Shown here: positions 16,206 to 44,995 of the stretch, piece after piece | How the letters are laid out: each line of letters begins with the position of its first letter | Position numbering within the stretch: position 1 is the stretch's first letter | Assembly (NCBI GenBank): GCA_934096235.1 | Contig: CAKOLO010000002.1 | Location: 301,919-365,918, forward strand | Length of the DNA: 64,000 nt | From: an uncultured Bacilli bacterium | Lineage (GTDB): Bacteria > Bacillota_I > Bacilli_A > RF39 > UBA660 | Reading direction: 5' to 3' | Notes under the pieces: model-generated | Told to the model about the DNA's origin: nothing | Database searches by the model: none | The model's input: the letters and a program-made list of their open reading frames with translations, nothing else | Translations under genes and position numbers: made by a program

Positions 16206-16526
16206 TTAAAGTAATCCTCCAAGACCATTAGTGTATTTTCCTAATTTTTTTTCTTTTTCCTTTTTAACTTGATTTATAACGTCATTTACTGCAACGTAAA
16301 TAATATCTTCTAGCATTTCTTTATCTTCTAGTATGTTTTCATTTTTTATTTGAATTTTAGTAATTGCATATGTTCCTAGTGCCTCTACTAAAACATTTTC
16401 ATTTTCATATGTGAAAACTGTCTTTTCTATTTCTTTTGAAGTTCTTTCTATATCTCCTTGTAATTTTCTGGCTTGTGCCATTATACTTTGCATATTCATA
16501 TTAAATTTTTCCTTTCTAATCCTCAT
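16206..16526 (-). CDS. ybaB: nucleoid-associated protein YbaB/EbfC
   Basis: 106 aa; MQSIMAQARKLQ..G..GGLL terminus; in the dnaX-ybaB-recR operon. Confidence 0.85.
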   Translation of the reverse strand: MRIRKEKFNMNMQSIMAQARKLQGDIERTSKEIEKTVFTYENENVLVEALGTYAITKIQIKNENILEDKEMLEDIIYVAVNDVINQVKKEKEKKLGKYTNGLGGLL

Positions 16527-18120
16527 TATTTATAATACTATCACCAAATAAATTTTCAACAGTATTCTCTAAAATTGTTGTATTTTTTGATTTTTCTATT
16601 TTATCTATTTCTTCGATGTATTCATATTTTTTTCCATTTTTTATATTACTGATGTATTCTTTTTTTATCTCATTCCATTCATCTATATTTACTGCAACTA
16701 TAGAATATTTTTTATCAAAAATTTGTTTTAAAAGTTTTTGAATTTCTATAATATTTTTTTCAAATAATACAACTTCAAAATTATTCTTAAAACTAAATAA
16801 TACATTGTTTTCTGAGACAACTTCTGGTATTGCTTTTTGCATTAAATTAGCAACCGAATTATATTCTTTATTTGATAAAAATTCTTTAATATTTTCAAAG
16901 TTTTTCACAAAAGAATTTTTAAGTAATTTATCAGCACCACATAGGGCATTATTAATTTTAATTTCTTTTTCTTGATCATTTTTTGTTTCATTTTTAATTT
17001 CAATTTTTTGGCTTAATTTTGGTGTTTGTTCTACTTTTTTAATATTTTTTTTGTCAAAAATTAAAGATGATTTTAATAAATATATTTCTACTAATACTTT
17101 TTGATTAGTTGTCTTTTTTAACTCATTTGAAAGTTTAAATAAAATGCTTGATAAATCTAGAAATTTTTCTAGATCAATTCTCGCAAAATTGCTTAATTTT
17201 TGTTCATATTCTTTTGAAAAATAATTATCTGAATTATTGTATATAATTATATTTCTTATTACTGTTTGAAGTCTATTAGTTATGTTAATAAAATTTTTTC
17301 CTTCAGAAAATAATATATCAACACTTTCTAAAATATTTTTAATGTCATGTTCAGTTATTTCTTTTAATAATTCGATTATTTTATTTTCACTAACATCACC
17401 TATTAAATTATAAACATCATCAGTATCTATATCGGTTTTATCTAAAGATATTAATTGATCAAGCATATTAATGGCATCTCTCATTCCACCATCACTAAGC
17501 TGAGATATCAATTCAACTACTTCAGGTTTAATTTTTTTATTTTCCTTTTCTAGTATGTAATTTAATCTATTTTCTATTTGATTTATAGTTAGTTTTTTAA
17601 AATCAAATTTTTGACATCTAGAGATTACAGTCGCAGGTATTTTGTTAAATTCTGTAGTTGCAAGAATGAATATTACATTTGATGGTGGTTCTTCTAACGT
17701 TTTTAATAATGCATTAAATGCGCTTGTAGATAACATGTGAACCTCATCAATTATATATACTTTATATTTTAAATGGTTTGGAGCTAGTTTAACATTATTT
17801 CTTATTTCTCTTATTTCATCTACTCCATTGTTACTTGCAGCATCTATTTCTACGATGTCAATTTCATCATCGAAATCAGATAAGCATACACTGCATTTTC
17901 CACATAAATCGCCAGATTCATTTTCAAGGCAATTTACGGCTTTTGAGAAGATTTTTGCAATACTAGTCTTTCCTGTACCTCTAGGTCCACTAAAGATGTA
18001 AGCGTGGCCTATTTTGCCTGTTAAAATTGAATTTTCTAATATTTTAATAACAATTTCTTGCCCAACCACATCTGAAAATGTTTTTGGCCTATATTTTCTA
18101 TACAACGATATGTAAGACAT
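16516..18120 (-). CDS. dnaX: DNA polymerase III subunit tau/gamma
   Basis: Walker A GPRGTGKTS, zinc module CxxC..CxxC, DEVHML box. Confidence 0.9.
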   Translation of the reverse strand: MSYISLYRKYRPKTFSDVVGQEIVIKILENSILTGKIGHAYIFSGPRGTGKTSIAKIFSKAVNCLENESGDLCGKCSVCLSDFDDEIDIVEIDAASNNGVDEIREIRNNVKLAPNHLKYKVYIIDEVHMLSTSAFNALLKTLEEPPSNVIFILATTEFNKIPATVISRCQKFDFKKLTINQIENRLNYILEKENKKIKPEVVELISQLSDGGMRDAINMLDQLISLDKTDIDTDDVYNLIGDVSENKIIELLKEITEHDIKNILESVDILFSEGKNFINITNRLQTVIRNIIIYNNSDNYFSKEYEQKLSNFARIDLEKFLDLSSILFKLSNELKKTTNQKVLVEIYLLKSSLIFDKKNIKKVEQTPKLSQKIEIKNETKNDQEKEIKINNALCGADKLLKNSFVKNFENIKEFLSNKEYNSVANLMQKAIPEVVSENNVLFSFKNNFEVVLFEKNIIEIQKLLKQIFDKKYSIVAVNIDEWNEIKKEYISNIKNGKKYEYIEEIDKIEKSKNTTILENTVENLFGDSIINNED

Positions 18121-18594: not shown

Positions 18595-18664
18595 GTGCAC
18601 ACAGAATAGTGTTTAAGGCTGCTATCTTCCGATTCTGACCTGATTCGCATTCTTTCTGTTGCAC
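18595..18664 (-). ncRNA. ffs: small (4.5S-like, ~70 nt) signal recognition particle RNA
   Basis: Minus strand reads GUGCAACAGAAAGAAUGCGAAUCAGGUCAGAAUCGGAAGAUAGCAGCCUUAAACACUAUUCUGUGUGCAC followed by a U-run. It contains the conserved domain-IV core CAGGUCAG...CGGAAG...AGCAGCC and a closing helix GUGCA../..UGUGCAC. It sits next to tadA and dnaX, as scr does in Bacillus. Ends are approximate. Confidence 0.55.
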
Positions 18665-18711
18665 AAATAAATTATATATTATTTTAAATATTAAATCAAG
18701 TATTTTTATTA

Positions 18712-18727
18712 TGTTCCACGTGGAACA
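18712..18727. promoter_or_regulatory. parS-like site 1 (perfect palindrome TGTTCCACGTGGAACA)
   Basis: Exact 16-bp palindrome matching the Firmicute parS consensus TGTTNCACGTGAAACA; followed by TAATGTTAATAAC. Confidence 0.7.
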
Positions 18728-18997
18728 TAATGTTAATAACTTATATTATCTGCACATTAATAAATTTAATATAATATTTCAATGTTAATTAATTTCAAAT
18801 TAATTTGTTTATAATTATAGTTTATTTATTAAAGTATAAATTATTTTTTTAGTAAAATATTTTATTTATACATTCTTTAATAGTCAAAAATTGTAATATT
18901 ATAAGTTATATGTTTATTATATAATTCTTAAATATAGTTTTAAAGATTTCATTATGCTGTCAATTGCATAATAATTTATATTCATTTACTTATTTTA

Positions 18998-19013
18998 TGT
19001 TCCACGTGGAACA
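18998..19013. promoter_or_regulatory. parS-like site 2
   Basis: Identical 16-mer; followed by TATTGTTAATTAC. Confidence 0.7.
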
Positions 19014-19177
19014 TATTGTTAATTACTTTGAATTATTGTTTATTAATATTCTGTTTTTTCGTTAGCAACTTTACTTTTTATTGAAACATTTTTGTTTAAT
19101 TTTATAATATTTTATTCTGATTATTAAATTTCAATATAAAACCTAATGATAATATATTATTTATTTTAATAAAAAAT

Positions 19178-19193
19178 TGTTCCACGTGGAACA
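19178..19193. promoter_or_regulatory. parS-like site 3
   Basis: Identical 16-mer; followed by TTGTTAATACAAC. Confidence 0.7.
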
Positions 19194-19399
19194 TTGTTAA
19201 TACAACATATTTTGGACTTCTAATAATAATTTTCTTTCTTTCGATTGTTAATATGTTATATACATGTTACTTTATAATTAATATTTTGGATTTATCATTT
19301 TTTCGTGATGCTTTGTTAATAAATTTATCTATTTTTTGACCTTATTATTTTAATATTTCTTCTTTATTTTTTTCTAATATTTTGTTAACTGATTTTTTA

Positions 19400-19415
19400 T
19401 GTTCCACGTGGAACA
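19400..19415. promoter_or_regulatory. parS-like site 4
   Basis: Identical 16-mer; followed by TTGTTAATAACT. Confidence 0.7.
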
Positions 19416-19433
19416 TTGTTAATAACTTTTTTT

Positions 19434-19447
19434 ATTTCCCGGGAAAT
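19434..19447. promoter_or_regulatory. Noc-binding-site (NBS) consensus palindrome ATTTCCCGGGAAAT
   Basis: Exact match to the 14-bp NBS consensus described for B. subtilis Noc. It lies inside a 16-bp perfect palindrome TATTTCCCGGGAAATA flanked by T-runs, 18 bp after parS-4 and 13 bp before parS-5. CCCGGG is otherwise very rare in this ~25% GC sequence. Confidence 0.6.
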
Positions 19448-19460
19448 ATTTTTTTCATTT

Positions 19461-19476
19461 TGTTCCACGTGGAACA
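19461..19476. promoter_or_regulatory. parS-like site 5
   Basis: Identical 16-mer; immediately precedes the A-run/hairpin of the gyrA terminator. Confidence 0.7.
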
Positions 19477-19478
19477 TT

Positions 19479-19504
19479 TAAAAAAAAGAGTAATAAATTA
19501 CTCT
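19479..19504 (-). terminator. Rho-independent terminator of gyrB-gyrA operon
   Basis: Hairpin agagtaa-taaa-ttactct overlapping the gyrA stop codon, followed on the minus strand by an 8-nt T-run. Confidence 0.6.
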
Positions 19505-25020: not shown

Positions 25021-25060
25021 TAAAAAAAGATAATTTTAATTTTAATTATCTTTTTTTGCT
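25021..25060. terminator. bidirectional hairpin terminator between comK-like and recF
   Basis: aaagataatt-ttaatttt-aattatcttt, a 10-bp stem flanked by an A-run and a T-run. Confidence 0.5.
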
Positions 25061-25497
25061 GTTCTTTCATCTAAAACAAATTTTAATCTTGTGGCTCTAA
25101 GAATTTGATTGGATAATGAGCCATATGATAAATCAAATTCCAAGATATCACCGTTCTTAAATAGAATTGCTGACCTATTATTTTCCAATTTGTAGTATTT
25201 TTCAATTTTTTCCAAATTAATCCATATGCAATCTTCTCTTTCTGGTGATGTTGTAGGAAAAAAAATCATTTTTCTACTTTCTTCTACTATTATTGGTGAT
25301 TTGTGAGTTATTCCGAGCATCTTACGAGTTCCATCTTTTCTTCCTTCAAATGAACTGCCAAAATATTCACAACTGTGTTCTAAAATTTCTTGAACTGAGT
25401 TATTAACTATGTATTCACTATCATGTTCTATTACTTTTGATTTGAACTCATCAATTGGAAGAACTAATTGTGTATCATAGTTTATTTCATAATTCAT
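25042..25497 (-). CDS. ComK-family competence transcription factor-like protein
   Basis: 151 aa; the blocks SCEYFGSSFEGRKDGTRKMLGITHKSPIIV and MIFFPTTSPEREDCIWI and FDLSYGSLSNQILRATRLK align with the conserved ComK core of B. subtilis ComK as I recall it (SCRFFGSSYAGRKAGT..ISHKPPIMV / IFLFPTLSSTRPQCGWI / ISYNSFENQVYRTAWLR). Good RBS AAAGGGGG. Confidence 0.7.
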   Translation of the reverse strand: MNYEINYDTQLVLPIDEFKSKVIEHDSEYIVNNSVQEILEHSCEYFGSSFEGRKDGTRKMLGITHKSPIIVEESRKMIFFPTTSPEREDCIWINLEKIEKYYKLENNRSAILFKNGDILEFDLSYGSLSNQILRATRLKFVLDERTAKKDN

Positions 25498-28612: not shown

Positions 28613-30076
28613 ATGAATAAGAAAGAATTGTTAGAAAATTATTTAAAAAAATTATACAAAATATATATTGAAAAAGACTTTAATGAGTTTGTTAATACGA
28701 TACTAAGTTATAACATAAGGATTGGAGATTATAAGAAAGATATTTCATCAATTTCTAAAAAAATTTTTGACGAAATATTGGTTTTACTTCCTGAAAGTAA
28801 GGCGAAATTCTCATATAAAGAATTTACCAATTTTTATAAGATAAATATAATATATAAAGAATATAACGATCCAACGCCTAAAGTCATAATAGATGTTCCG
28901 GTGTTTATAGAAAACTATGAAAAAATAACAAATAATTTAATAAAATTTTTAATAGAAAATAAAATTAATTCTTATATTAAACTACAAAAAGTATCTCAAA
29001 ATGCTTTACTTGAAATTCGCGTTGATAATGAAGCAGAAGCTAAAAAGATAGTTAATCACTTTAAAACAAATAAAGAAATAGTTCAAGAAATAAAATCTAG
29101 GGTAGTTCCATTTTTACCTGAAGATAATCTACTAGGTTTTTCATATGAATATAAACCATATAATTTTAAAAATTTTTATTATGTTTGTTTATATGAATAT
29201 TTTTCAACACTTAAATCTATCGATAATTTAACTTTGGATGGTTTAGTTGCTTACATAGATAATAAATATAAAGTTGAAAGAAGACTAAATAAAAAGAGAA
29301 TGCTATTATCAATTTATAATAGTATTAGGGTTATAAATGAAGAAGATGATATTTATTCTATGTTTAGATATAATTCTGATATGAATATTGGCAGTATAAA
29401 TCCTAATGAGTTTGATTTAAAACTTGATGAAAATAAGATGATATTTTTTGTTAATAAATTGGATGAAAGAATAATTTCATATGGAAGTGAAGAATATTTG
29501 AATTTAGTTTATTCAAAATTTTATGATAATTTTATTAAAAGAGAAGAGAGTTCTACATATTATGGCTATTTTTATAATATTTTTAGTAAAATTTTATCAG
29601 ATGATTACAAAGATATTGATAAATTATTAGATTTTTCTAATATGCAAAAAGATTATATTTATACTTTAATGATGTTAATATCTAGTTTGTTCTTTGCATA
29701 TAAAAAAATGAATTTTTCATTAAATGATGTTTATTCTATATTAAAATATGTGCTATTTAAAAAATATAAACTAGAAATCAAAATAAAATCTTCAGAAGAA
29801 TATGAAGAAAAGAAAAATATATATATTTTTCCATTAAATATTGAATATGGAAATAAAGTCGTTGATTTAAAAGATAAATCTAAAATAACAGTTAAGGAAT
29901 ATTTTAGGCAAAATAAAATTGAGGATACCATTCCTTTAAATTCTCTTGTATATATGAAAGATGGAAAAATATTAAAGGGAGAAGATTTTTTAAGAGATTT
30001 ATATAAATATATTGGTTTATATGATTCATTTGAAGAATTGAGAAATTCACTAATAAGTTTAATAGAATTTAAATAA
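28613..30076 (+). CDS. hypothetical cytoplasmic protein (487 aa, K/Y/N-rich, no recognisable domain)
   Basis: Long uninterrupted ORF with an RBS-like GGAGATATGGG upstream; no TM segment or known motif. Confidence 0.5.
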   Translation: MNKKELLENYLKKLYKIYIEKDFNEFVNTILSYNIRIGDYKKDISSISKKIFDEILVLLPESKAKFSYKEFTNFYKINIIYKEYNDPTPKVIIDVPVFIENYEKITNNLIKFLIENKINSYIKLQKVSQNALLEIRVDNEAEAKKIVNHFKTNKEIVQEIKSRVVPFLPEDNLLGFSYEYKPYNFKNFYYVCLYEYFSTLKSIDNLTLDGLVAYIDNKYKVERRLNKKRMLLSIYNSIRVINEEDDIYSMFRYNSDMNIGSINPNEFDLKLDENKMIFFVNKLDERIISYGSEEYLNLVYSKFYDNFIKREESSTYYGYFYNIFSKILSDDYKDIDKLLDFSNMQKDYIYTLMMLISSLFFAYKKMNFSLNDVYSILKYVLFKKYKLEIKIKSSEEYEEKKNIYIFPLNIEYGNKVVDLKDKSKITVKEYFRQNKIEDTIPLNSLVYMKDGKILKGEDFLRDLYKYIGLYDSFEELRNSLISLIEFK

Positions 30077-33631: not shown

Positions 33632-35494
33632 ATGAAATATGATGTTATAGTTGTTGGTGGGGGTCACGCTGGATGTGAGGCTTCTTTAGCTTGTGCTAGA
33701 ATGGGTGAAAAAACTTTACTTATTACAATTAATATAAATAATATAGCAGATATGCCTTGTAATCCATCAATAGGTGGTTCTGCAAAGGGTATTGTTGTAC
33801 GTGAAATAGATGCATTAGGTGGAGAAATGGGTTATTGTGCTGATAAAACTCATCTCCAAATTAAGATGCTTAATGTAAAAAAAGGACCTGGTGTTAGATC
33901 ACTTAGATGTCAAGGATGTAAGGTTAATTATCCTAAAGAAATGCTAAAAACTTTAAGAGAAACTAAGAATTTAGATATTAAAGAAGCAATAGTTAAAGAA
34001 TTAATTGTTGAAGATAAAAAAGTATGTGGAATTATTACTGAAGATGGTGAAAGAATAGAAAGTAAAGCTGTTATTCTTACGACTGGAACATATTTAAACT
34101 CTGATATTATGTGTGGTCATGAAAAACATAAAGGTGGCCCTCATGGTGAAAAAAATTCTATGTATTTAAGTGATTCTCTTCAAAAAAATGGAATAAAAAT
34201 AATAAGATTAAAAACTGGTACTCCTCCTAGAATTTTAAAAAGTAGTATTAATTTTAATGAAGTACAAATAGAAGAAGGAGATAAAGAGCCTCTTACATTT
34301 AGTAATTTTTATGATGCAACTTATGATGTTAATAAACAAACACCATGTTATTTAACTTATACTAATAAAGAAACACATAAAATAATTATGGATAATTTAG
34401 ATAAATGTTCTTTATATAGTGGAATGATTAAAGGAGTTGGACCTCGTTATTGTCCATCTATTGAAGACAAAGTAGTAAAATTTAATGATAAAGATAGACA
34501 TCAAATATTCCTAGAACCTGAACGTAGTGATGATATAGAATATTATGTTGGTGGGTTTTCTACTACTATGCCTCATGAGATACAAGAAAAATTATTAAAG
34601 ACTATGGATGGTCTTCATAATGTAGTAATAACTAAATATGGTTATGCAATTGAGTATGATGCAATTGATCCATTACAATTAAAGATGTCATTAGAAAATA
34701 AGGTACTTGAAAACTTATTTACTGCTGGACAAATAAATGGAACTAGTGGTTATGAAGAGGCAGCTGCTCAAGGGCTTATGGCAGGTATTAATGCATCTTT
34801 AAAATTACAAGGAAAAGATCCATTTATATTAAAGAGAAATGAAGCATATATAGGTGTACTTATTGATGACTTGATTAATAAAGGAATAACTGAACCATAT
34901 AGATTATTAACTTCTCGTGCCGAATTTAGATTACTTCTAAGACATGATAATGCATCACTTAGATTGACTCCTTATGGTAGAAAACTTGGTCTTATAAATG
35001 ATGAAAAGTATGGAATATTTACTAAGATGATTAATGATATGAAAGAGTTAGAAGAATATTTAGAAAATAGTTATCTAACATCTACTGATGAAGTAAATAA
35101 GTTTTTAGAAAGCATTAATTCTTCTAAAATATATGGAAGGACATCACTTAAAGATTTAGTAAAAAGACCTGAAATTGATATATGTGTTTTACTTGACTAT
35201 ATGAATAGACCGTATGATAAAAAGATCGCTGATATGGTTCAAATAGAAATTAAATATAAAGGATATATAGATAAGACTAAAGCTGAAGTAGAAAAGATGT
35301 TAAAACTTGAAAATAAACAAATACCTGAAAATATAGATTATGAAAAAGTACCTAATATAGCTACTGAAGCAAGACAAAAATTCAGTAAGATTAGACCTCT
35401 AACTATAGGTCAAGCATCTAGAATAAGTGGCGTTAATCCATCTGATATAACCATGTTATTAGTTTATTTAAAAAAGGAATACAATAATGACTAA
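33632..35494 (+). CDS. mnmG: tRNA uridine 5-carboxymethylaminomethyl modification enzyme MnmG
   Basis: FAD fold VIVVGGGHAGCEA; 620 aa. Confidence 0.95.
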   Translation: MKYDVIVVGGGHAGCEASLACARMGEKTLLITININNIADMPCNPSIGGSAKGIVVREIDALGGEMGYCADKTHLQIKMLNVKKGPGVRSLRCQGCKVNYPKEMLKTLRETKNLDIKEAIVKELIVEDKKVCGIITEDGERIESKAVILTTGTYLNSDIMCGHEKHKGGPHGEKNSMYLSDSLQKNGIKIIRLKTGTPPRILKSSINFNEVQIEEGDKEPLTFSNFYDATYDVNKQTPCYLTYTNKETHKIIMDNLDKCSLYSGMIKGVGPRYCPSIEDKVVKFNDKDRHQIFLEPERSDDIEYYVGGFSTTMPHEIQEKLLKTMDGLHNVVITKYGYAIEYDAIDPLQLKMSLENKVLENLFTAGQINGTSGYEEAAAQGLMAGINASLKLQGKDPFILKRNEAYIGVLIDDLINKGITEPYRLLTSRAEFRLLLRHDNASLRLTPYGRKLGLINDEKYGIFTKMINDMKELEEYLENSYLTSTDEVNKFLESINSSKIYGRTSLKDLVKRPEIDICVLLDYMNRPYDKKIADMVQIEIKYKGYIDKTKAEVEKMLKLENKQIPENIDYEKVPNIATEARQKFSKIRPLTIGQASRISGVNPSDITMLLVYLKKEYNND

Positions 35495-36197
35495 AGAAGA
35501 ATTTATATTATATTGCAATAAATTAAATATTAAGATAAGTGAAGAATTGTATAGTAAGTTTTTTACTTATTTTGAAATGTTGGTAGAATGGAATAATAAG
35601 TTTAATATGACTACTATTCTTGAAGAAAAAGACGTATTTTTGTTACATTTTTATGATTCATTATGTTTATTTAAAGTAGTGGATTTAAATAAGGAAGTTA
35701 ATTTATGTGATTTTGGTACAGGTGCTGGATTTCCGGGACTTCCTATAGCTATAGTTTTTCCTAAGGTTAGTGTTACATTAGTTGAATCTAATGGAAAAAA
35801 ATGTATGTTCTTAAATGCAATAAAAGATTCTCTAAAGTTAGAAAATGTTACTGTAGTAAATGATAGAATTGAAAATTTTAGTACTAAAGAACGTGAAAAG
35901 TTTGATATTGTTACTTGTAGAGCTGTTACTTCAATACCTATGATACTAGAAATGGCTACATCTTTAGTAAAAGTAAATGGTGTGCTTGTTCCATTAAAAT
36001 CAAATTGTGAAGAAGAATTAGTTAAATATAGTTATTTAGAGAATGAACTTGGTATAAAACTAATTCAAAAAGAAGTATATAGTTTACCTATAAATGATGC
36101 TTATAGAGTAATACCTGTATATAAAAAGAAAAAAACAACTGATAAAAAGTATCCTAGAAGTTATAATTCTTTATTAAAAATGTATAAAAATAAATAG
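35487..36197 (+). CDS. rsmG: 16S rRNA m7G527 methyltransferase RsmG
   Basis: DFGTGAGFPGLP SAM motif; position after mnmG. Confidence 0.9.
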   Translation: MTKEEFILYCNKLNIKISEELYSKFFTYFEMLVEWNNKFNMTTILEEKDVFLLHFYDSLCLFKVVDLNKEVNLCDFGTGAGFPGLPIAIVFPKVSVTLVESNGKKCMFLNAIKDSLKLENVTVVNDRIENFSTKEREKFDIVTCRAVTSIPMILEMATSLVKVNGVLVPLKSNCEEELVKYSYLENELGIKLIQKEVYSLPINDAYRVIPVYKKKKTTDKKYPRSYNSLLKMYKNK

Positions 36198-36276: not shown

Positions 36277-37509
36277 ATGGACGAGAACAAAGATAAAATT
36301 TATTACATACCAGTTGAAGATATTATACCTAATAGATTTCAACCAAGGCTTGCTTTTGATGAAAAAGAATTAAATGAACTTGCTAATTCTATTATTAAAT
36401 ATGGTGTTATTCAACCTATTGTACTTAGAAGTATTGGTGAAAAATATGAAATAATCGCAGGTGAAAGAAGATATAAAGCTTCATGCATTGCTGGTCTTAA
36501 AAAGATTCCTGCTATTATAAATAATACTGATGATAATACTAGTGCTGAGATAGCTTTACTTGAAAATCTTCAAAGAAAAAATTTATCTGTTATTGAAGAA
36601 GCACAATCATATAAAAAGTTAATGGATAGAGGTTTTACTCAAGAAGATATAGCTATAAAACTTGGTATTAGTCAATCAGCTGTAGCTAATAAAATGAGAC
36701 TTTTAAATTTGCCAAAAGAAGTACAAGATGCTCTTTTATATAATAGAATATCTGAAAGACATGCTAGAAGTTTATTGTCACTTAATAATGAAGATTTACA
36801 AAAAAGTTTGCTACATAGAATTACTAGTGAAAAGTTAACTGTTAGACAAACGGAAGAAGCAGTTAGTGAATTATTAAATAGAGATAAGATTGAAAAAGAA
36901 GAACTACCAAGTGATATTCAAAAATTTTTAAAACCAGAACCAGTGGTTGAAACTAAAGAACAAGTTATCGGTAATAATCCTGTTGAGGAATATTTAGATA
37001 TTAAAGTTCCTGATGTAGTTTCAATTGAACCTGAAACATCTGTTTTAACTGAATATACTGATGATACTCAAATAATAAATCCATTTCAAAATGTTAATTC
37101 AGCTAATGAGGTTCAAAATACTATTAATAGTAATATTGTGTCAAATAATGAAATATCAAGTAATATTGAGACACCATTTATAAGTGAAAATGTTAATAAT
37201 GCTTACAATGAAACTGAAAAAGAAACGGTTAATTTTGTAAAAAATGATGAACCAGCAAATAATACAAATAATACTTACTTCAATCCATATAAGTTTCCAG
37301 ATGAAAAGGAAGAAGTGAAAGAAGAAATAACTGATGAAGATTCTTTATTAAATGAATATGGTGAAGTTAATTTACCAAAAGTAATTAATAAAGTAAGAGA
37401 TTTTGTTAGTAGTTTAGATCAAGTAAGTAGTTTAATTGAAACTAGTGAAGTAGATTTAACTGATAAATACCAAATTATTATTGAAATTAATAAGAACACA
37501 CCTATGTAG
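36277..37509 (+). CDS. noc: ParB-family protein, Noc-like (nucleoid occlusion protein paralogue) with long low-complexity C-terminal extension
   Basis: ParB N-domain (IPNRFQPR, GERRYKA, ENLQRKNL) and HTH (TQEDIAIKLGISQSAVANKMRLLNLP). The ISERHARSLLSL and IPNRFQPR blocks resemble B. subtilis Noc (ITERHARAL, VPNRFQPR) more than Spo0J (GHGR, PNPYQPR), from my recollection of those sequences. Sits immediately after rsmG where noc lies in Bacillus. The ~200-aa N/E-rich C-terminus is unusual. Confidence 0.65.
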   Translation: MDENKDKIYYIPVEDIIPNRFQPRLAFDEKELNELANSIIKYGVIQPIVLRSIGEKYEIIAGERRYKASCIAGLKKIPAIINNTDDNTSAEIALLENLQRKNLSVIEEAQSYKKLMDRGFTQEDIAIKLGISQSAVANKMRLLNLPKEVQDALLYNRISERHARSLLSLNNEDLQKSLLHRITSEKLTVRQTEEAVSELLNRDKIEKEELPSDIQKFLKPEPVVETKEQVIGNNPVEEYLDIKVPDVVSIEPETSVLTEYTDDTQIINPFQNVNSANEVQNTINSNIVSNNEISSNIETPFISENVNNAYNETEKETVNFVKNDEPANNTNNTYFNPYKFPDEKEEVKEEITDEDSLLNEYGEVNLPKVINKVRDFVSSLDQVSSLIETSEVDLTDKYQIIIEINKNTPM

Positions 37510-37605: not shown

Positions 37606-38763
37606 ATGGGATTAATAAAAGCATTGTCTGGAGCTACTACTACAGCTTTAGGAGATCAATTTAAAGAGTTTGTGACTTGCCCTACTATTTCAAGAAACGT
37701 TTTAATTCAAAGAGGTATTGTTATTCATGGTAATGGTAATAGTAATCCAAGTGATGGAATTATTACTAATGGAAGTACTATTGTGGTACCTCAAGGTATG
37801 GCGATGATGCTTATTGAGAATGGTGAAATAAAAGAATTTACTGCTGATGCTGGTACTTTCTACTTTGATACTAGTAGTGAACCTAGTATATTTACTGGTG
37901 GTCTTGGAAAGGGAATTATAGATACATTTAAGACTATTGGAAAACGTTTTACTTATGGAGGACAAACTGCTAAAGATCAAAGAGTTTACTATGTAAATTT
38001 ATTAACTATTGCAGGTAATAAATTTGGTTCACCACAACCAAGAAAAATTACTGATGAGAAATATGGTATGTTAGAAGTTACTTTCTTTGGAGAATATGCT
38101 TTTAAAGTAGCTGATCCAATTATGTTAGTAAATAGTGTTATAGGAGCTAATGCAGCTGATACTGTTTATTATGAAGATGTTATTGGTAGTCAATTACAAT
38201 CTAAATTTATTGAAAAATTAACTCAAGCAATTACAGTTGTTATGAGAAAACATAAAGTTTCTTTTGGAGATATTGGTTTATATAATGGAGATATTTCTGA
38301 AGAAATGAATGTATGTTTAGATGATTCTTGGAGAAAAAATTTTGGTTTAGAAGTTGTAGATGTAGCTATTGGAGATATTAACCTCACTGATGAATCTATG
38401 ATTAAAGTTAATAAGATTGATGAAGCTACTATATTTTCAAATAAAAATTTACAATCTGGTTTAATGGCTAGTGCTTCGGCTGATGCTTTAAGAAATGCAT
38501 CTTCTAATGAAAATGGTGCAATGATGGGATTTATGGGTATGAATATGGCTACTGGTGCTGTTAATAATATGATGGGAACAATAAATAATGGTACTGATGT
38601 AAATGGTTATAAACCTGAAACTAATCAACCTGAAATGGGAACAATATTCAATAATGAAGAAGTTAAAGTTGAAGATGTACCTGAAGTAAAAAAATGTCCA
38701 AATTGTGGAGAAATAGCTGTTGGTAAGTTCTGTAGTAATTGTGGAACTAAAATGGAAGAATAA
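37606..38763 (+). CDS. SPFH/band-7-like domain protein with C-terminal zinc-ribbon
   Basis: 385 aa; C-terminal CPNCGEIAVGKFCSNCG zinc ribbon; N-terminal ~250 aa resembles SPFH-type proteins (assignment tentative). Confidence 0.4.
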   Translation: MGLIKALSGATTTALGDQFKEFVTCPTISRNVLIQRGIVIHGNGNSNPSDGIITNGSTIVVPQGMAMMLIENGEIKEFTADAGTFYFDTSSEPSIFTGGLGKGIIDTFKTIGKRFTYGGQTAKDQRVYYVNLLTIAGNKFGSPQPRKITDEKYGMLEVTFFGEYAFKVADPIMLVNSVIGANAADTVYYEDVIGSQLQSKFIEKLTQAITVVMRKHKVSFGDIGLYNGDISEEMNVCLDDSWRKNFGLEVVDVAIGDINLTDESMIKVNKIDEATIFSNKNLQSGLMASASADALRNASSNENGAMMGFMGMNMATGAVNNMMGTINNGTDVNGYKPETNQPEMGTIFNNEEVKVEDVPEVKKCPNCGEIAVGKFCSNCGTKMEE

Positions 38764-38793
38764 AAAAATGACTCTTAATTTAAAGAGTCTTTT
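38764..38793. terminator. bidirectional terminator between the SPFH-like gene and the PBP gene
   Basis: gactctt-aattta-aagagtc hairpin with an A-run upstream and a T-run downstream. Confidence 0.5.
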
Positions 38794-40709
38794 ATATTGG
38801 AAAAATTTATATCGTATGTAGGTTCTGATCCTTTTTCATAGTAGCATATAAAACCATTACTATTGGGTTCTCCACTAATTGAATTTATTGAAGCTGCGGT
38901 TATTCCTTTAGGTATGTCATACCATTCATTTTTGTTATCTTTAATAGAAGCTATTGTTTTAGACCATATCTTTTTAGTTATTTTAGAGTCTTTTGACTTT
39001 ACATCGGTATTATCATCGTTTCCGGCCCAAACAAGCATTAAATAGTCTTTATTATATCCTACAGTCCAATAATCTGTTGATGTACTACCGCTTTTAGCTG
39101 CATATTTTCCTTTTAATTCATTCCCAATGCTAACTAATGTAGGAGAAGTATAATTAATAAGACTATAGTTGTATGTTGATGTTAATAAGTTGTTTAAAAT
39201 ATATACATATTTTTTGTTTAATACATAATCTTCACTATATTTATACTCATAAAGTATTTTACCTGTATTGTCTGTTACCTTTTCTATTAGATGTGGGCTT
39301 TCATGTTTACCTTCATTAGCAAGTGTTATGAAACCATTGCTAAAGTCAATCATATTTATTTCGGATGTTCCTAAGGCAGAAGATGCATTTTCTTTTACTT
39401 CTGTTTTGATACCAACACGTTTTATTGTTTTAGATAACATGTCTGTTCCTAAAAATAAATGTGTTTTCATGGCATAAATGTTATCTGAATATGCGATAGC
39501 TGATAACATAGAGATATTTTTATTAGCATAGATATTTCCTGCATTTCTTGGTGAATATGTTGTGTCTCCTAAATTAAATGTTGTTCTTTCACTTAAAAAC
39601 GTACTTGAAGGAGTAAAACCATTTTCAAGGGCACTATAATAAAGAAAAGGTTTTATTGTTGAACCAACTTGTCTTTTTGATGAGTATGCTCTATTGTACT
39701 CTGATAATGAATAATCTTTTCCTCCAATAAGTGCAACTATTTTACCATTTGTTGGTGTTATTACTATAGAAGCTACTTGTAAAGTTGTGTCTTTCATTTC
39801 ATTATCTATATTATTTTCTAAGTTTTTTTGTACATCTTTATCAAGATTAGTGTATATTTTAAGTCCTTCCATATCTAATAGTGATGATGGTATTTCTTTT
39901 ATACTAGAAAGTTCTTTTAAAACAGCATCTTTGTAATAATAAATACTAGAGAGTTCAACTTTATCATTTTTACCATAAAGTTTTAATTCTTCGTTATATG
40001 CTTTATTCATTTCATCAGTAGAAATTAATTTGTTTTTTACCATACTATAGAGTACATCTTTTTGTCTTTCTTTAGCATTCTCATAGTGAGCAACTGGATT
40101 ATAATAACTTGGATTTTTAGGTATACCAACTATTATAGATGATTCAGCGAGTGTTAGGTCTTTGGGTTCTTTATTAAAATAATATTTACTTGCTTCTTTT
40201 ATTCCATAGTTTCCCGCCCCAAAATCAATAGTATTTAAATATCCTTCAAGTATTTCATTTTTTGAATAATGTGTTTCTAGTTCTAAAGTAAGAAGTGCTT
40301 CTTGTATTTTTCTTTCCCATGTTTTATCAAAAGTTAAATATAAATTTTTAATATATTGTTGTGAAATTGTAGAAGCACCTTCTTTAATCTTTTTACTTTT
40401 TAAATTTACAAACATAGCTTTAGCAATTCTTAAATAATCAAATCCTTTATGATTATAAAAGTTTTTATCTTCAATTGAAACAATTGCTGTTTTAACATAA
40501 TCACTAATGTTAGAAAGTTCTACAAAATCATTTTTTTCTCTTTCTTTGAATAAATCATTACCATATTTATCATAATAAGTTATGCTTTTACTTGTATTAA
40601 TATTAAACTTAGGTGTGATAAACGCATAAGCATAAAGACTTAAAATTATTATAATAATAGAGAAAAATGTGAATATAAATATTTTAGTTAATAATAGTAA
40701 TTTTTTCAT
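38775..40709 (-). CDS. class A penicillin-binding protein (bifunctional transglycosylase/transpeptidase)
   Basis: GT51 motifs (EDKNFYNHKGFD, GASTISQQ), transpeptidase SxxK (STIKP), SxN and KSG(S/T) (KSGST). Confidence 0.85.
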   Translation of the reverse strand: MKKLLLLTKIFIFTFFSIIIIILSLYAYAFITPKFNINTSKSITYYDKYGNDLFKEREKNDFVELSNISDYVKTAIVSIEDKNFYNHKGFDYLRIAKAMFVNLKSKKIKEGASTISQQYIKNLYLTFDKTWERKIQEALLTLELETHYSKNEILEGYLNTIDFGAGNYGIKEASKYYFNKEPKDLTLAESSIIVGIPKNPSYYNPVAHYENAKERQKDVLYSMVKNKLISTDEMNKAYNEELKLYGKNDKVELSSIYYYKDAVLKELSSIKEIPSSLLDMEGLKIYTNLDKDVQKNLENNIDNEMKDTTLQVASIVITPTNGKIVALIGGKDYSLSEYNRAYSSKRQVGSTIKPFLYYSALENGFTPSSTFLSERTTFNLGDTTYSPRNAGNIYANKNISMLSAIAYSDNIYAMKTHLFLGTDMLSKTIKRVGIKTEVKENASSALGTSEINMIDFSNGFITLANEGKHESPHLIEKVTDNTGKILYEYKYSEDYVLNKKYVYILNNLLTSTYNYSLINYTSPTLVSIGNELKGKYAAKSGSTSTDYWTVGYNKDYLMLVWAGNDDNTDVKSKDSKITKKIWSKTIASIKDNKNEWYDIPKGITAASINSISGEPNSNGFICYYEKGSEPTYDINFSNIKDSLN

Positions 40710-43152: not shown

Positions 43153-43656
43153 ATGAAAAAAATAATATGTGGTATACTTTTTGTAATAGTGATTATACTT
43201 GTGTCCAAGCCAAGGTATAATTTAAGTGGTGATATGGTTAGATTTAGAGTAATCGCTAATAGTAACTCATCTATCGATATATTAATAAAAGAAAAAGTTG
43301 TTAACGAGTTATCAACATTGTTATTTAAGGATTCAAACGATATTAACGAGACACGCAATAATGTAGTTAATAATTTAGATCAGGTAAATTCTAGTATAGA
43401 TAAAGTATTTAGTGAAAATAATTATAATTTAAAATATAAAGTTAGGTATGGCATGAACTATTTTCCTAGTAAAGAATATAATAATATTAAGTTTGAGGCA
43501 GGAGAATATGAGAGTTTAGTTATTGAAATAGGTGAGGCTAAAGGTAATAATTATTGGTGTATTTTATATCCACCTCTTTGTATGGTTGATTATGAAAATG
43601 ATGAAAAGATAGAATATAAATCTAAAATATATGAAGTATTATCTAAATGGTTCTAA
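43153..43656 (+). CDS. spoIIR: stage II sporulation protein R-like
   Basis: Signal peptide; VRFRVIANSNSSIDILIKEKV resembles the conserved SpoIIR block (RFHVIANSDS..Q.LKL.VRD). Confidence 0.5.
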   Translation: MKKIICGILFVIVIILVSKPRYNLSGDMVRFRVIANSNSSIDILIKEKVVNELSTLLFKDSNDINETRNNVVNNLDQVNSSIDKVFSENNYNLKYKVRYGMNYFPSKEYNNIKFEAGEYESLVIEIGEAKGNNYWCILYPPLCMVDYENDEKIEYKSKIYEVLSKWF

Positions 43657-43741
43657 ATGTAAACACTGCCTAAAAACTGTCTAATTCGTTGATAAAATCT
43701 ATTTTTAATAGTATATTATAAGTAGAAAGGCATTGGTGTTT

Positions 43742-44995
43742 ATGTCAAAGATAACTATAGAAGGTAACCATAGGTTATCAGGTGAAATTAAAATTAGCGG
43801 AGCAAAGAATAGTGCAGTTGCACTTATTCCTACTGCAATACTTGCTAAAACAAAGAGTGTTATATATAATGTACCAACTATAAGTGATATTGAATATTTA
43901 ATTAATATTTTGGAATTGCTTAATTGTAAAGTTGAACATAAAGATGATGCATTATATATAGATTCAACTAATCTTGTTAATAAACCTATACCTGAAGAAT
44001 TAAGTGTTCAAATGAGAGCATCATATTATTTTATGGGTGTATTGCTTGCTAAATTTGGTAGAGTTGAAATGTCTTTTCCTGGTGGATGTAATATAGGAGC
44101 AAGGCCAATTGATATTCATATAAAAGGATTTGAACAATTGGGTGCTAAAGTTGAAATAATTAAGAATAGATATATTATAACTGCTGATAAGTTGATAGGC
44201 AAAAGAATATATTTCGATTTTCCAAGTGTTGGGGCTACTATTAATGTTATGCTTGCGGCAGTAGGTGCTGAAGGAACTACTATAATAGATAATGCTGCGA
44301 TGGAACCGGAGATTGTAAATGTTGCATCTTTCTTAATAAATATGGGTGTTAAGATAAGAGGTGCAGGAACTAAACGTATTGAAATAGAGGGTACTAAGAA
44401 TTTAGACAATGGTGTTATAGAAGTTTTCCCTGATAGAATAGAAAGTGGCACTTATATAATTATAGGTGCATTGCTTGGAGATAATCTTAGAATTAAAGGT
44501 ATTATTAAAGAGCATATAGAAGCTCTTCTTATGAAACTTAAAGAAATAGGAGTAGAGTATTCAATAGATGCTGATGTTCTTACAATATCTAAATGTGAAC
44601 ATTTAAAACCAACATATATTAAAACATTAGTATTCCCTGGATTTCCTACTGATCTACAACAACCTATGACAACATTATTAACACAGGCTGAAGGAAAATC
44701 TATTGTAGAAGAAACACTATATGAAAATAGATTTAAAAATACATATGATCTTAATAGAATGGGTGCGATTACTAATATATTGAGTTTAAATAAAATAGAA
44801 ATTAAAGGTCCTCGTAAGCTTAAAGGTACTAAAGTAATAGCTACTGATTTAAGAGGTGGTGCATCATTATTGATAGCTGGTCTTATTGCAGATGGCGTCA
44901 CTGAAATAGAAAGTAGTGAGTATATTTTAAGAGGATATGGAGATGTAGAAAAGAAACTTTCAAATGTAGGTGCTAAAATAAAAGTAACTGAGTAA
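43742..44995 (+). CDS. murA: UDP-N-acetylglucosamine 1-carboxyvinyltransferase
   Basis: MSKITIEGN start; active-site Cys loop (PGGCNIGARPID); 418 aa. Confidence 0.9.
   Translation: MSKITIEGNHRLSGEIKISGAKNSAVALIPTAILAKTKSVIYNVPTISDIEYLINILELLNCKVEHKDDALYIDSTNLVNKPIPEELSVQMRASYYFMGVLLAKFGRVEMSFPGGCNIGARPIDIHIKGFEQLGAKVEIIKNRYIITADKLIGKRIYFDFPSVGATINVMLAAVGAEGTTIIDNAAMEPEIVNVASFLINMGVKIRGAGTKRIEIEGTKNLDNGVIEVFPDRIESGTYIIIGALLGDNLRIKGIIKEHIEALLMKLKEIGVEYSIDADVLTISKCEHLKPTYIKTLVFPGFPTDLQQPMTTLLTQAEGKSIVEETLYENRFKNTYDLNRMGAITNILSLNKIEIKGPRKLKGTKVIATDLRGGASLLIAGLIADGVTEIESSEYILRGYGDVEKKLSNVGAKIKVTE

Follow-up and report, generated by a model that had tools for sequence, protein, structure and literature searches.

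A Noc-like protein without the N-terminal membrane helix and with a long acidic linker in uncultured gut Bacilli, and a composite parS/NBS array near the replication origin

The noc-like gene and the array at gyrA-tadA

The DNA described here, called the window, is a stretch of 64,000 nucleotides from an uncultured Bacilli bacterium (assembly GCA_934096235.1, contig CAKOLO010000002.1, positions 301,919 to 365,918 of the forward strand), the genome of which has a G+C content of about 25%. Only one of its 236 six-frame segments belongs to the ParB family. This segment is part of an open reading frame (ORF) that starts with ATG 80 bp downstream of the end of rsmG and encodes a protein resembling Noc, a paralogue derived from ParB; it is referred to below as the noc-like gene. 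The window also contains, between gyrA and tadA, an array of five parS sites and one Noc-binding site (NBS). Literature searches found no description of a Noc that lacks its N-terminal helix or of composite parS/NBS arrays, which is not a proof that none exists. The parts of the gene and of the array are as follows.

36277..37509, plus strand: noc-like gene, encoding a 410-aa protein of the Noc clade with the ParB/CTPase fold (ORF, Pfam, TIGR04285 and PDB matches)
36295..36573, plus strand: N-terminal ParB_N domain, predicted to bind cytidine triphosphate (CTP), residues 7-99 (Pfam ParB_N, 1.1e-32; motifs PNRFQPR, GERRYKA and ENLQR)
36577..36876, plus strand: helix-turn-helix (HTH) DNA-binding domain HTH_ParB, residues 101-200 (Pfam, 3.7e-33; AlphaFold2 predicted local distance difference test (pLDDT) 81-91)
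36892..37092, plus strand: conserved part of the acidic linker, residues 206-272 (invariant columns in alignments of close homologues)
37093..37341, plus strand: hypervariable, N/E/T-rich, disordered spacer, residues 273-355 (indel-rich, unconserved columns; net charge -13; pLDDT below 50)
37342..37506, plus strand: Noc-type C-terminal domain, presumed to dimerize, residues 356-410 (near-invariant; TIGR04285 alignment)
18712..19476, no strand: five perfect parS palindromes TGTTCCACGTGGAACA, at 18712, 18998, 19178, 19400 and 19461, in the gyrA-tadA intergenic region and enclosing the NBS
19433..19448, no strand: 16-bp perfect NBS TATTTCCCGGGAAATA, present in a single copy in the window, the predicted loading site of the noc-like protein

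Relationship of the protein to Noc and Spo0J

The NCBIfam model TIGR04285 (nucleoid_noc) matches the protein with 271.5 bits and the generic parB_part model with 169 bits. The best matches in the PDB are Noc structures 7nfu/7ng0/7ol9 at 183-195 bits (195, 194, 183), compared with 161 and 155 bits and lower values for Spo0J/ParB. A neighbor-joining tree was calculated on a 193-residue core of the window protein and 79 relatives, Bacillus/Geobacillus Noc, B. subtilis Spo0J and 27 Spo0J proteins from related genomes. In this tree, the long-linker family to which the window protein belongs is monophyletic with a bootstrap value of 96%, and it joins Bacillus/Geobacillus Noc; B. subtilis Spo0J and the 27 Spo0J proteins of the relatives branch separately. 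Over the same core, the protein is 49-52% identical to Bacillus/Geobacillus Noc and 41-44% identical to Spo0J.

The choice between parS and NBS has been traced to four positions, 173/179/184/201, occupied by RTAG in ParB and by QKKR in Noc (PMC7383237). Q173 is responsible for the choice of A at position 1 of the site and R201 for that of C at position 6; a single Lys, either at 179 or at 184, is sufficient; and R173 and G201 are invariant among parS-binding ParB proteins (PMC7383237). The corresponding residues of the noc-like protein are Q133, K139, N144 and R161, three of the four being identical to those of Noc. Both base-contacting residues of an NBS binder, Q and R, are therefore present together with one permissive Lys, and the parS-recognition pair R173/G201 is replaced by Q133 and R161. 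Neither the ParA-stimulating N-terminal peptide (LGKGL) nor an adjacent parA was found for the noc-like gene.

Model scores, structure matches, the tree, the specificity residues, synteny and the NBS all agree, and by these lines of sequence evidence the product is Noc-like and not Spo0J-like. An earlier sequence-only reading of this DNA had come to the same view and had also noted, rightly, that this is the lone ParB-family gene of the window, placed after rsmG. The proteins of the clade should be annotated as Noc-like rather than as ParB; the public annotation of one relative reads 'ParB/RepB/Spo0J family partition protein'.

Domain structure and the linker

Full-length alignments were made with 12 and with 35 close homologues, which are 66-100% identical. 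In the ParB_N domain P18, F21, Q22, P23 and R24, G62, E63, R64 and R65, and E96, N97 and R100 are invariant, and the motifs are also invariant in 50 diverse members of the family and can be aligned with the structures of Noc. The strings IPNRFQPR and ISERHARSL occupy residues 17-24 and 158-166. Throughout the family, the third Arg of ParB box II, GERRxRA, is a Lys (GERRYKA in the window protein, residues 62-68, window 36460-36480); at the equivalent position R91A is tolerated by B. subtilis Noc (PMC4331003).

The PNRFQPR motif begins at residue 18, as compared with residue 40 in B. subtilis Noc, and only 7 residues lie ahead of the first β-strand, the N-terminus being MDENKDKIYY. Because an in-frame stop codon is located 7 codons upstream and a purine-rich ribosome-binding site precedes the ATG, the short N-terminus MDENKDKIYYIPV is not an artifact of start-codon assignment. 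The hydrophobic moment of residues 1-25 does not exceed 0.34 and their net charge is negative. As judged from these features, the N-terminal amphipathic membrane-targeting helix, α1, is absent, as the sequence-only reading had stated, and so is α2. In B. subtilis Noc this helix tethers DNA to the membrane and is necessary, and it has been reported to be extremely conserved in all homologues examined; NocNdelta10 is non-functional, and the N-terminus of Noc can be exchanged for a heterologous amphipathic helix (PMC4331003). In Bacillus the helix is gated by CTP, the control lying in its packing onto the N-domain that binds CTP (PMC8429893). Since the helix is necessary there and absent here, this clade must work differently from B. 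subtilis Noc.

Pfam assigns no domain past residue 200 of the full-length protein, and NCBIfam gives no match to the isolated tail. When residues 213-351 were removed in silico, TIGR04285 aligned over positions 2-255 of its 255, with the score rising to 284.4 bits. As the linker-deleted protein thus matches the Noc model from end to end, the last 55 residues represent the C-terminal domain of Noc; what is new is an insertion of about 150 residues between the DNA-binding and C-terminal domains. The net charge of this linker is about -24. Its conserved part, residues 206-272, contains P-SDIQKFLK-P (212-219), VEEYLDIKVPDVVSIEPE (236-253) and IINPFQ (266-271), the invariant forms in the alignments being ELP-SDIQKFLK-PEP, VEEYLDIKVPxVVxIEPE and IINPF. 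The sequence-only reading had described residues ~210-410 as a low-complexity, Asn/Glu/Val-rich extension. This description suits the hypervariable, disordered residues 273-355 and has to be given up for the motif-bearing residues 206-272 and the conserved C-terminal domain at 356-410. An AlphaFold2 model calculated from a shallow alignment of 35 sequences is confident only at residues 100-200; its pLDDT is below 50 for residues 250-351, and short helices are modeled at 212-218 and 366-379.

The linker motifs recur across the family. A module of 34 residues with fixed spacing, phi-D-phi-x-x-I-K-x-x-A-x-D-I ... D-phi-x-x-L-L-K-P, is seen in distant members, and its second half is retained in the window protein as SDIQKFLKP (212-220). 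The motif D-[IL]-x-x-[LF]-L-K-P occurs throughout the family, accompanied by N[KR]FFNFLE[DE] and [FY]NIPxxPI[IV]E, all well above the expectation from shuffled sequences, with the relatedness of the sequences uncorrected. FFN[FN]-type motifs are present in 52 of 219 linkers, compared with 3.8 expected from shuffles. A profile of the 34-50-aa module had no match in the PDB at E<=10 and no significant match in a set of 5.8 billion proteins. We take D-I-x-x-F-L-K to resemble, loosely, the C-terminal peptide of FtsZ (D-I-P-x-F-L-R/K), and KFFNFLE to resemble the 'SRFFGLGE' of the Bacillus Noc helix.

The protein can now be compared with the known systems. With the Noc proteins of Bacillus subtilis and Geobacillus thermoleovorans (TIGR04285; 7NFU, 7NG0, 7OL9, 6Y93) it shares the ParB-type N-domain with PNRFQPR, GERR and ENLQR, a near-identical recognition helix (G.SQS.ANK.RLL.LP ... 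I[ST]ERHAR), the Noc-type C-terminal domain, the position of the gene directly after rsmG and the conserved cognate site. It differs from them in that α1 (the 10-aa membrane helix) and α2, about 22 residues, are missing, and in the acidic disordered linker, at the place of which Bacillus Noc has about 4 residues. Further differences from Bacillus Noc are Asn instead of Lys at 184, Lys for the third Arg of GERRxRA, a score under the curated cut-off of the family, and an NBS that lies inside a parS array and is not merely one of scattered sites. The protein thus belongs to Noc by descent, whereas the missing membrane helix, which is the defining functional feature of the family, and the score place it outside the canonical membership. 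The fold, the domain order and presumably the CTP-gated clamp mechanism are common to ParB/Spo0J (TIGR00180; 6SDK, 1VZ0, 6T1F), which in contrast have the LGKGL/Lys-finger peptide, an adjacent ParA and another type of C-terminal domain; with Q and R at the positions of R173/G201, binding of the noc-like protein to parS is unexpected. The natural start of the protein is close to that of the truncated construct NocNdelta26, and such constructs (NocNdelta10/NocNdelta26) bind DNA and dimerize at the N-domain (PMC4331003, PMC8429893). Unlike NocNdelta10, the natural form is kept across a huge clade and carries an additional linker with motifs. The conservation of the helix-less form and the linker motifs, in spite of the loss of function of NocNdelta10, suggest compensation or a different mode of action.

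Distribution of the long-linker family

A cluster search covered 1.84 billion representatives at 50% identity, and the best 150 clusters were examined. Their members are 324-744 aa long, except for eight short, probably truncated entries. Nearly all full-length members have PNRFQPR from residue 15-22, G.SQS.ANK.RLL.L, ISERHAR and the ending '...EEFDFEDMYQIIIKIxK'. Two of the entries, P0152 (242 aa) and P0128 (388 aa), have a long, hydrophobic, transmembrane-like end in place of the linker and the C-terminal domain, e.g. ...STILTIGLFVIFCLVIAIPRLIFV; such an end is either the product of a frameshift artifact or a membrane anchor of another kind.

A scan of GTDB species genomes yielded 80 related loci, all from uncultured gut or rumen metagenome-assembled genomes (MAGs) labeled Bacilli, Tenericutes or Erysipelotrichaceae. 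The short N-terminus and the long linker are common to the best 150 clusters, the eight short entries apart, and to 77 of these 80 loci, with lengths ranging over 320-744 aa. The linkers of the family have a median length of about 200 aa (65-491); their net charge per residue lies between -0.12 and -0.16, and about 70% of their residues promote disorder. These sequences make up a very large natural clade of helix-less Noc orthologues with a long acidic linker, all of those retrieved being from uncultured Bacilli, mostly of animal guts.

The noc-like gene adjoins rsmG at every related locus with enough upstream sequence. The soj-spo0J pair is present at 27 of the 80 loci, in the order rsmG-noc-soj-spo0J at 26 of them and beyond rnpA at one (L010). 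At the other 53, the branch of the window included, no soj-spo0J was found within 10 kb of noc. Asn at position 184 is far commoner in the clade without adjacent soj-spo0J than in the soj-spo0J clade. The Spo0J proteins of the relatives are 291-313 aa long and have no extension; that of L010 has the LGKGL N-terminus, R173 and G201.

These comparisons change the weight of several features that the sequence-only reading had singled out. The tail is indeed foreign to Bacillus Noc, and it is the rule in the protein's own very large clade. The features do not mark this gene out: the extension is common to the Noc proteins of the lineage, a condition that the reading itself had named as one that would refute it, and is confined to the Noc paralogue. 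Nor is it anomalous that the gene is an 'orphan, with no ParA partner': Noc by nature has no ParA partner, soj-spo0J accompany many of the related loci, and 'orphan' is a locus-level statement.

The parS/NBS array

The array occupies the non-coding gap between gyrA and tadA (window 18651-19497), and the NBS is located between the last two parS copies. A parS scan gave 11 strand-wise matches, where 0.03 were expected, and TGTTCCACGTGGAACA is of the parS type at both discriminating positions.

Metagenomes were scanned for an exact parS within 5-35 bp of an exact NBS core, a design that imposes a distance of 20-50 bp for one pair per locus. The scan returned 71 stretches (L087-L157), the chance expectation being far below one, and in about 68 of the 71 the sites lie in the neighborhood gyrA-[array]-tadA-dnaX. 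A functional link between the parS and NBS locus and the gene, suggested in the sequence-only reading, is supported. The arrays contain 240 parS-like and 149 NBS sites, a mean of 3.4 and 2.1, which often alternate strictly; in L136 and L153 the unit N-P (NBS-parS) is repeated five times. The total number of NBS in the 71 loci is 177. Distances between the centers of the nearest parS and NBS cluster near 22-27, 32-38 and 44-50 bp, with redundant loci kept. In the related noc loci, 6 perfect NBS occur in 1.36 Mb.

One of these arrays, L095, comes from the species of the window and has identical spacings. The arrays of sister species, L124 and L146, begin with the same order P-N-P and have other spacers and other numbers of sites. 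As the sites persist while spacers and numbers differ, selection acts on the sites. Within the genus of the window, 5-6 parS are kept across three species with differing spacers. As judged from DnaA similarity, arrays are present in lineages near the soj-spo0J-bearing clade as well as near the clade of the window. Because two distinct palindromes are each kept perfect, two separate binders are expected, Noc for the NBS and a canonical ParB for parS, and a canonical Spo0J is very probably encoded outside the ~84 kb around oriC that were searched. The five perfectly conserved parS, taken with the Q173/R201-type residues of the noc-like protein, argue in the same direction.

Sites of similar type occur elsewhere. 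In 12 of the related noc loci (L014, L018, L025, L041, L042, L048, L051, L052, L059, L060, L061, L062), NBS-like palindromes TATTTCCnnGGAAATA (<=2 mismatches) precede the start of noc by 50-300 bp; no parS occurs in the noc loci, and the rsmG-noc spacer of the window has no NBS-like site. The position of the NBS-like sites upstream of noc suggests self-loading or autoregulation. A perfect NBS is present inside dnaX, ~1.7-2 kb from the array, in L087, L088, L096, L099, L100, L109, L112, L120, L125, L143 and L155, and absent from the dnaX of the window (16516-18120). Finally, on a Clostridia-like contig with 49% GC (L110, 741-4110), a noc-like gene (QKQR) with a short linker is separated from the soj-spo0J that follow it by 950 bp, in which 3-4 parS and a single perfect NBS are located. 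This arrangement implies that the juxtaposition of parS and NBS extends beyond the long-linker clade.

Surroundings of the gene in the origin region

35487..36197, plus strand: rsmG (gidB), the conserved upstream neighbor (Pfam GidB, 2.3e-46)
37606..38763, plus strand: SPFH/Band_7_1 gene with a zinc-ribbon end, next after the noc-like gene
38775..40709, minus strand: gene of a class A penicillin-binding protein (PBP), convergent, beyond the SPFH gene

The window spans oriC, and its GC skew switches sign at ~28 kb. The genes are arranged dnaX-tadA-[array]-gyrA-gyrB-recF-comK-dnaN-dnaA along the minus strand and then rpmH-rnpA-yidC-jag-mnmE-mnmG-rsmG-noc along the plus strand. A phmmer search of the six frames found no ParA/Soj-like segment in the 64 kb at E<=10, a motif scan found no deviant Walker A motif in the window, and no second ParB or Soj was found in a further ~10 kb beyond each window edge, so that ~84 kb around oriC were covered. 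The noc-like protein had no match in PADLOC.

As the sequence-only reading had observed, soj and spo0J do not follow the noc-like gene, and the SPFH/zinc-ribbon gene and the convergent PBP gene take their position. The SPFH gene was considered as a functional or replacement partner and ruled out: its adjacency to noc is limited to the window and to L001-L003, the three closest loci, where it is a recent insertion, and elsewhere in the clade the PBP gene directly follows noc. The proposal of a rewired segregation or nucleoid-occlusion module can be retained to the extent that the locus is rewired; the protein is neither unique nor a true orphan, and the SPFH gene can be left out of account.

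At the skew switch, between dnaA and rpmH, there is an ORF of 487 aa (28613-30076, plus strand) with a GC content of ~20%. It has no Pfam or PADLOC match, a homologue is absent from all 80 related loci, and other assemblies of this species (L081-L083) also contain it; the oriC region may have acquired it recently by insertion. Its absence from the 80 loci rules it out as the binder of parS. A gene of the ComK family (25042-25497, minus strand; Pfam, 6.7e-46) lies between dnaN and recF in the origin operon, the slot of yaaA in B. subtilis. The lineage carries spoIIR, spoVT, spoVG, yabP, a class A PBP and murA (window 43153-43656, 38775-40709 and 43733-44995, and L085). Because of the spo genes, the PBP and murA, the lineage looks walled, with sporulation genes and a small genome, despite the name 'Tenericutes' in some MAG titles.

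Possible mode of action

By combining these observations, it is possible to outline how the protein may act. We consider it probable, though well short of certain, that the noc-like gene is an orthologue of Noc from a clade that works with its linker, and that its product is co-loaded beside canonical ParB at a composite origin-proximal centromere. A Noc dimer would load on the NBS, close into a CTP-dependent sliding clamp and spread, by analogy with Noc and ParB. Canonical ParB, encoded elsewhere, would be loaded side by side with it at the same centromere. The effect would then be delivered by the linker and not by a direct N-terminal membrane anchor. The linker might form a polyanionic brush, or it might bind partners by means of motifs such as D-I-x-x-F-L-K-P.

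A more daring version of this scheme can be put forward only tentatively. The Noc of the clade would be a second CTP clamp of the centromere and not a membrane-tethering occlusion factor, and the NBS would alternate with parS, so that both clamps spread over the same DNA. The linker module would recruit or exclude a partner, perhaps a division protein in view of the loose resemblance of its second motif to the FtsZ peptide, and the array could be a record of the NBS arising from parS after the duplication of ParB and Noc.

Several points weigh against co-loading by a Noc of this kind. The curated TIGR04285 cut-off of 315 bits is missed both by the native protein and by its linker-deleted form (284.4 bits), and the bootstrap value for the split between Noc and Spo0J is just 66%. 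The AlphaFold2 model is poor outside residues 100-200, with a mean pLDDT of 57. CTP binding, clamp formation, NBS binding and the lack of membrane binding are all predicted properties. No canonical ParB or ParA was found in the ~84 kb covered of this genome. A search for a relocated Spo0J with the Spo0J of L010 as query gave, among the matches listed, only proteins of its own genus with at least 83% identity and no Spo0J of the genome of the window. Residues 209-220 are as amphipathic as the Bacillus Noc helix, which leads to the main rival explanation.

According to this rival, the protein is an ordinary nucleoid-occlusion Noc, the membrane anchor of which has moved to the start of the linker (P-SDIQKFLK-P, 211-220; N[KR]FFNFLE[DE] elsewhere), the linker giving it reach. 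Segment 209-220 has the highest hydrophobic moment in the linker, 0.62-0.66, the value of the B. subtilis Noc helix being 0.56. Prolines flank the segment on both sides, I214, F217 and L218 are invariant, and a short helix is modeled there. The enrichment of FFN[FN]-type motifs points in the same direction, as does the finding that the Noc N-terminus can be substituted by a heterologous amphipathic helix (PMC4331003). Such an anchor, however, would have only ~8 residues with a net charge of 0 to +1 within a strongly acidic linker, which is unfavorable for anionic membranes, and in many cases the motif as it recurs across the family, D-[IL]-x-x-L-L-[KQE]-P, has no basic character at all. The CTP switch, which depends on packing against the N-domain (PMC8429893), would be lost at the position of the linker. 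A relocated anchor is for these reasons regarded as unlikely, although it is the strongest competitor to co-loading beside ParB.

The protein might instead be the sole ParB-family protein of the genome, serving both kinds of site as a ParA-independent centromere protein or SMC loader in a lineage without soj-spo0J. The absence of soj and spo0J within ~84 kb of oriC would be explained, as would the membership of the window in the large clade of 53 loci without soj-spo0J near noc, where Asn at 184 is much commoner, and deep mutational scanning did give some variants of dual specificity (PMC7383237). But Q and R at positions 173 and 201 select the NBS, whereas R173/G201 are invariant in parS binders, and a single promiscuous binder needs no pair of palindromes that alternate and are each perfect. 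Lineages with a Spo0J of their own have such arrays too, the genus of the window retains its parS while the spacers change, and L010, a member of the clade without adjacent soj-spo0J, has canonical soj-spo0J beyond rnpA, which demonstrates that relocation occurs. Service of both sites by one protein thus appears decidedly improbable. Least credible of all, and given hardly any weight here, is a decaying, functionless Noc remnant that has lost its helix and whose linker grows longer by slippage, the genome being rich in A+T. The middle of the linker is N/E/T-rich, hypervariable and rich in indels, in a genome of about 25% G+C, and NocNdelta10 is without function in B. subtilis. Decay is at odds with an N-domain, an HTH and a C-terminal domain that are near-invariant down to 66% overall identity, with an architecture kept nearly throughout the clusters and genome loci, with linker motifs of fixed spacing in distant members and with the maintenance of perfect NBS sites.

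Implications

The current model of Noc rests on the N-terminal amphipathic helix, with which a clade of helix-less orthologues under a generic public annotation stands in contrast. The interest of the finding is at the level of this clade and of the composite centromere, and not of the present gene alone. If Noc and ParB are co-loaded as proposed, the arrays would offer a case in nature of two paralogous CTP clamps being loaded at sites no more than 20-50 bp apart, in which interference or cooperation between clamps can be tested directly. They would also provide a genomic setting for the question, raised by Jalal 2020, of how the specificities of ParB and Noc diverged. Membrane tethering for nucleoid occlusion would then no longer count as the universal role of Noc, nor perhaps as its ancestral one.

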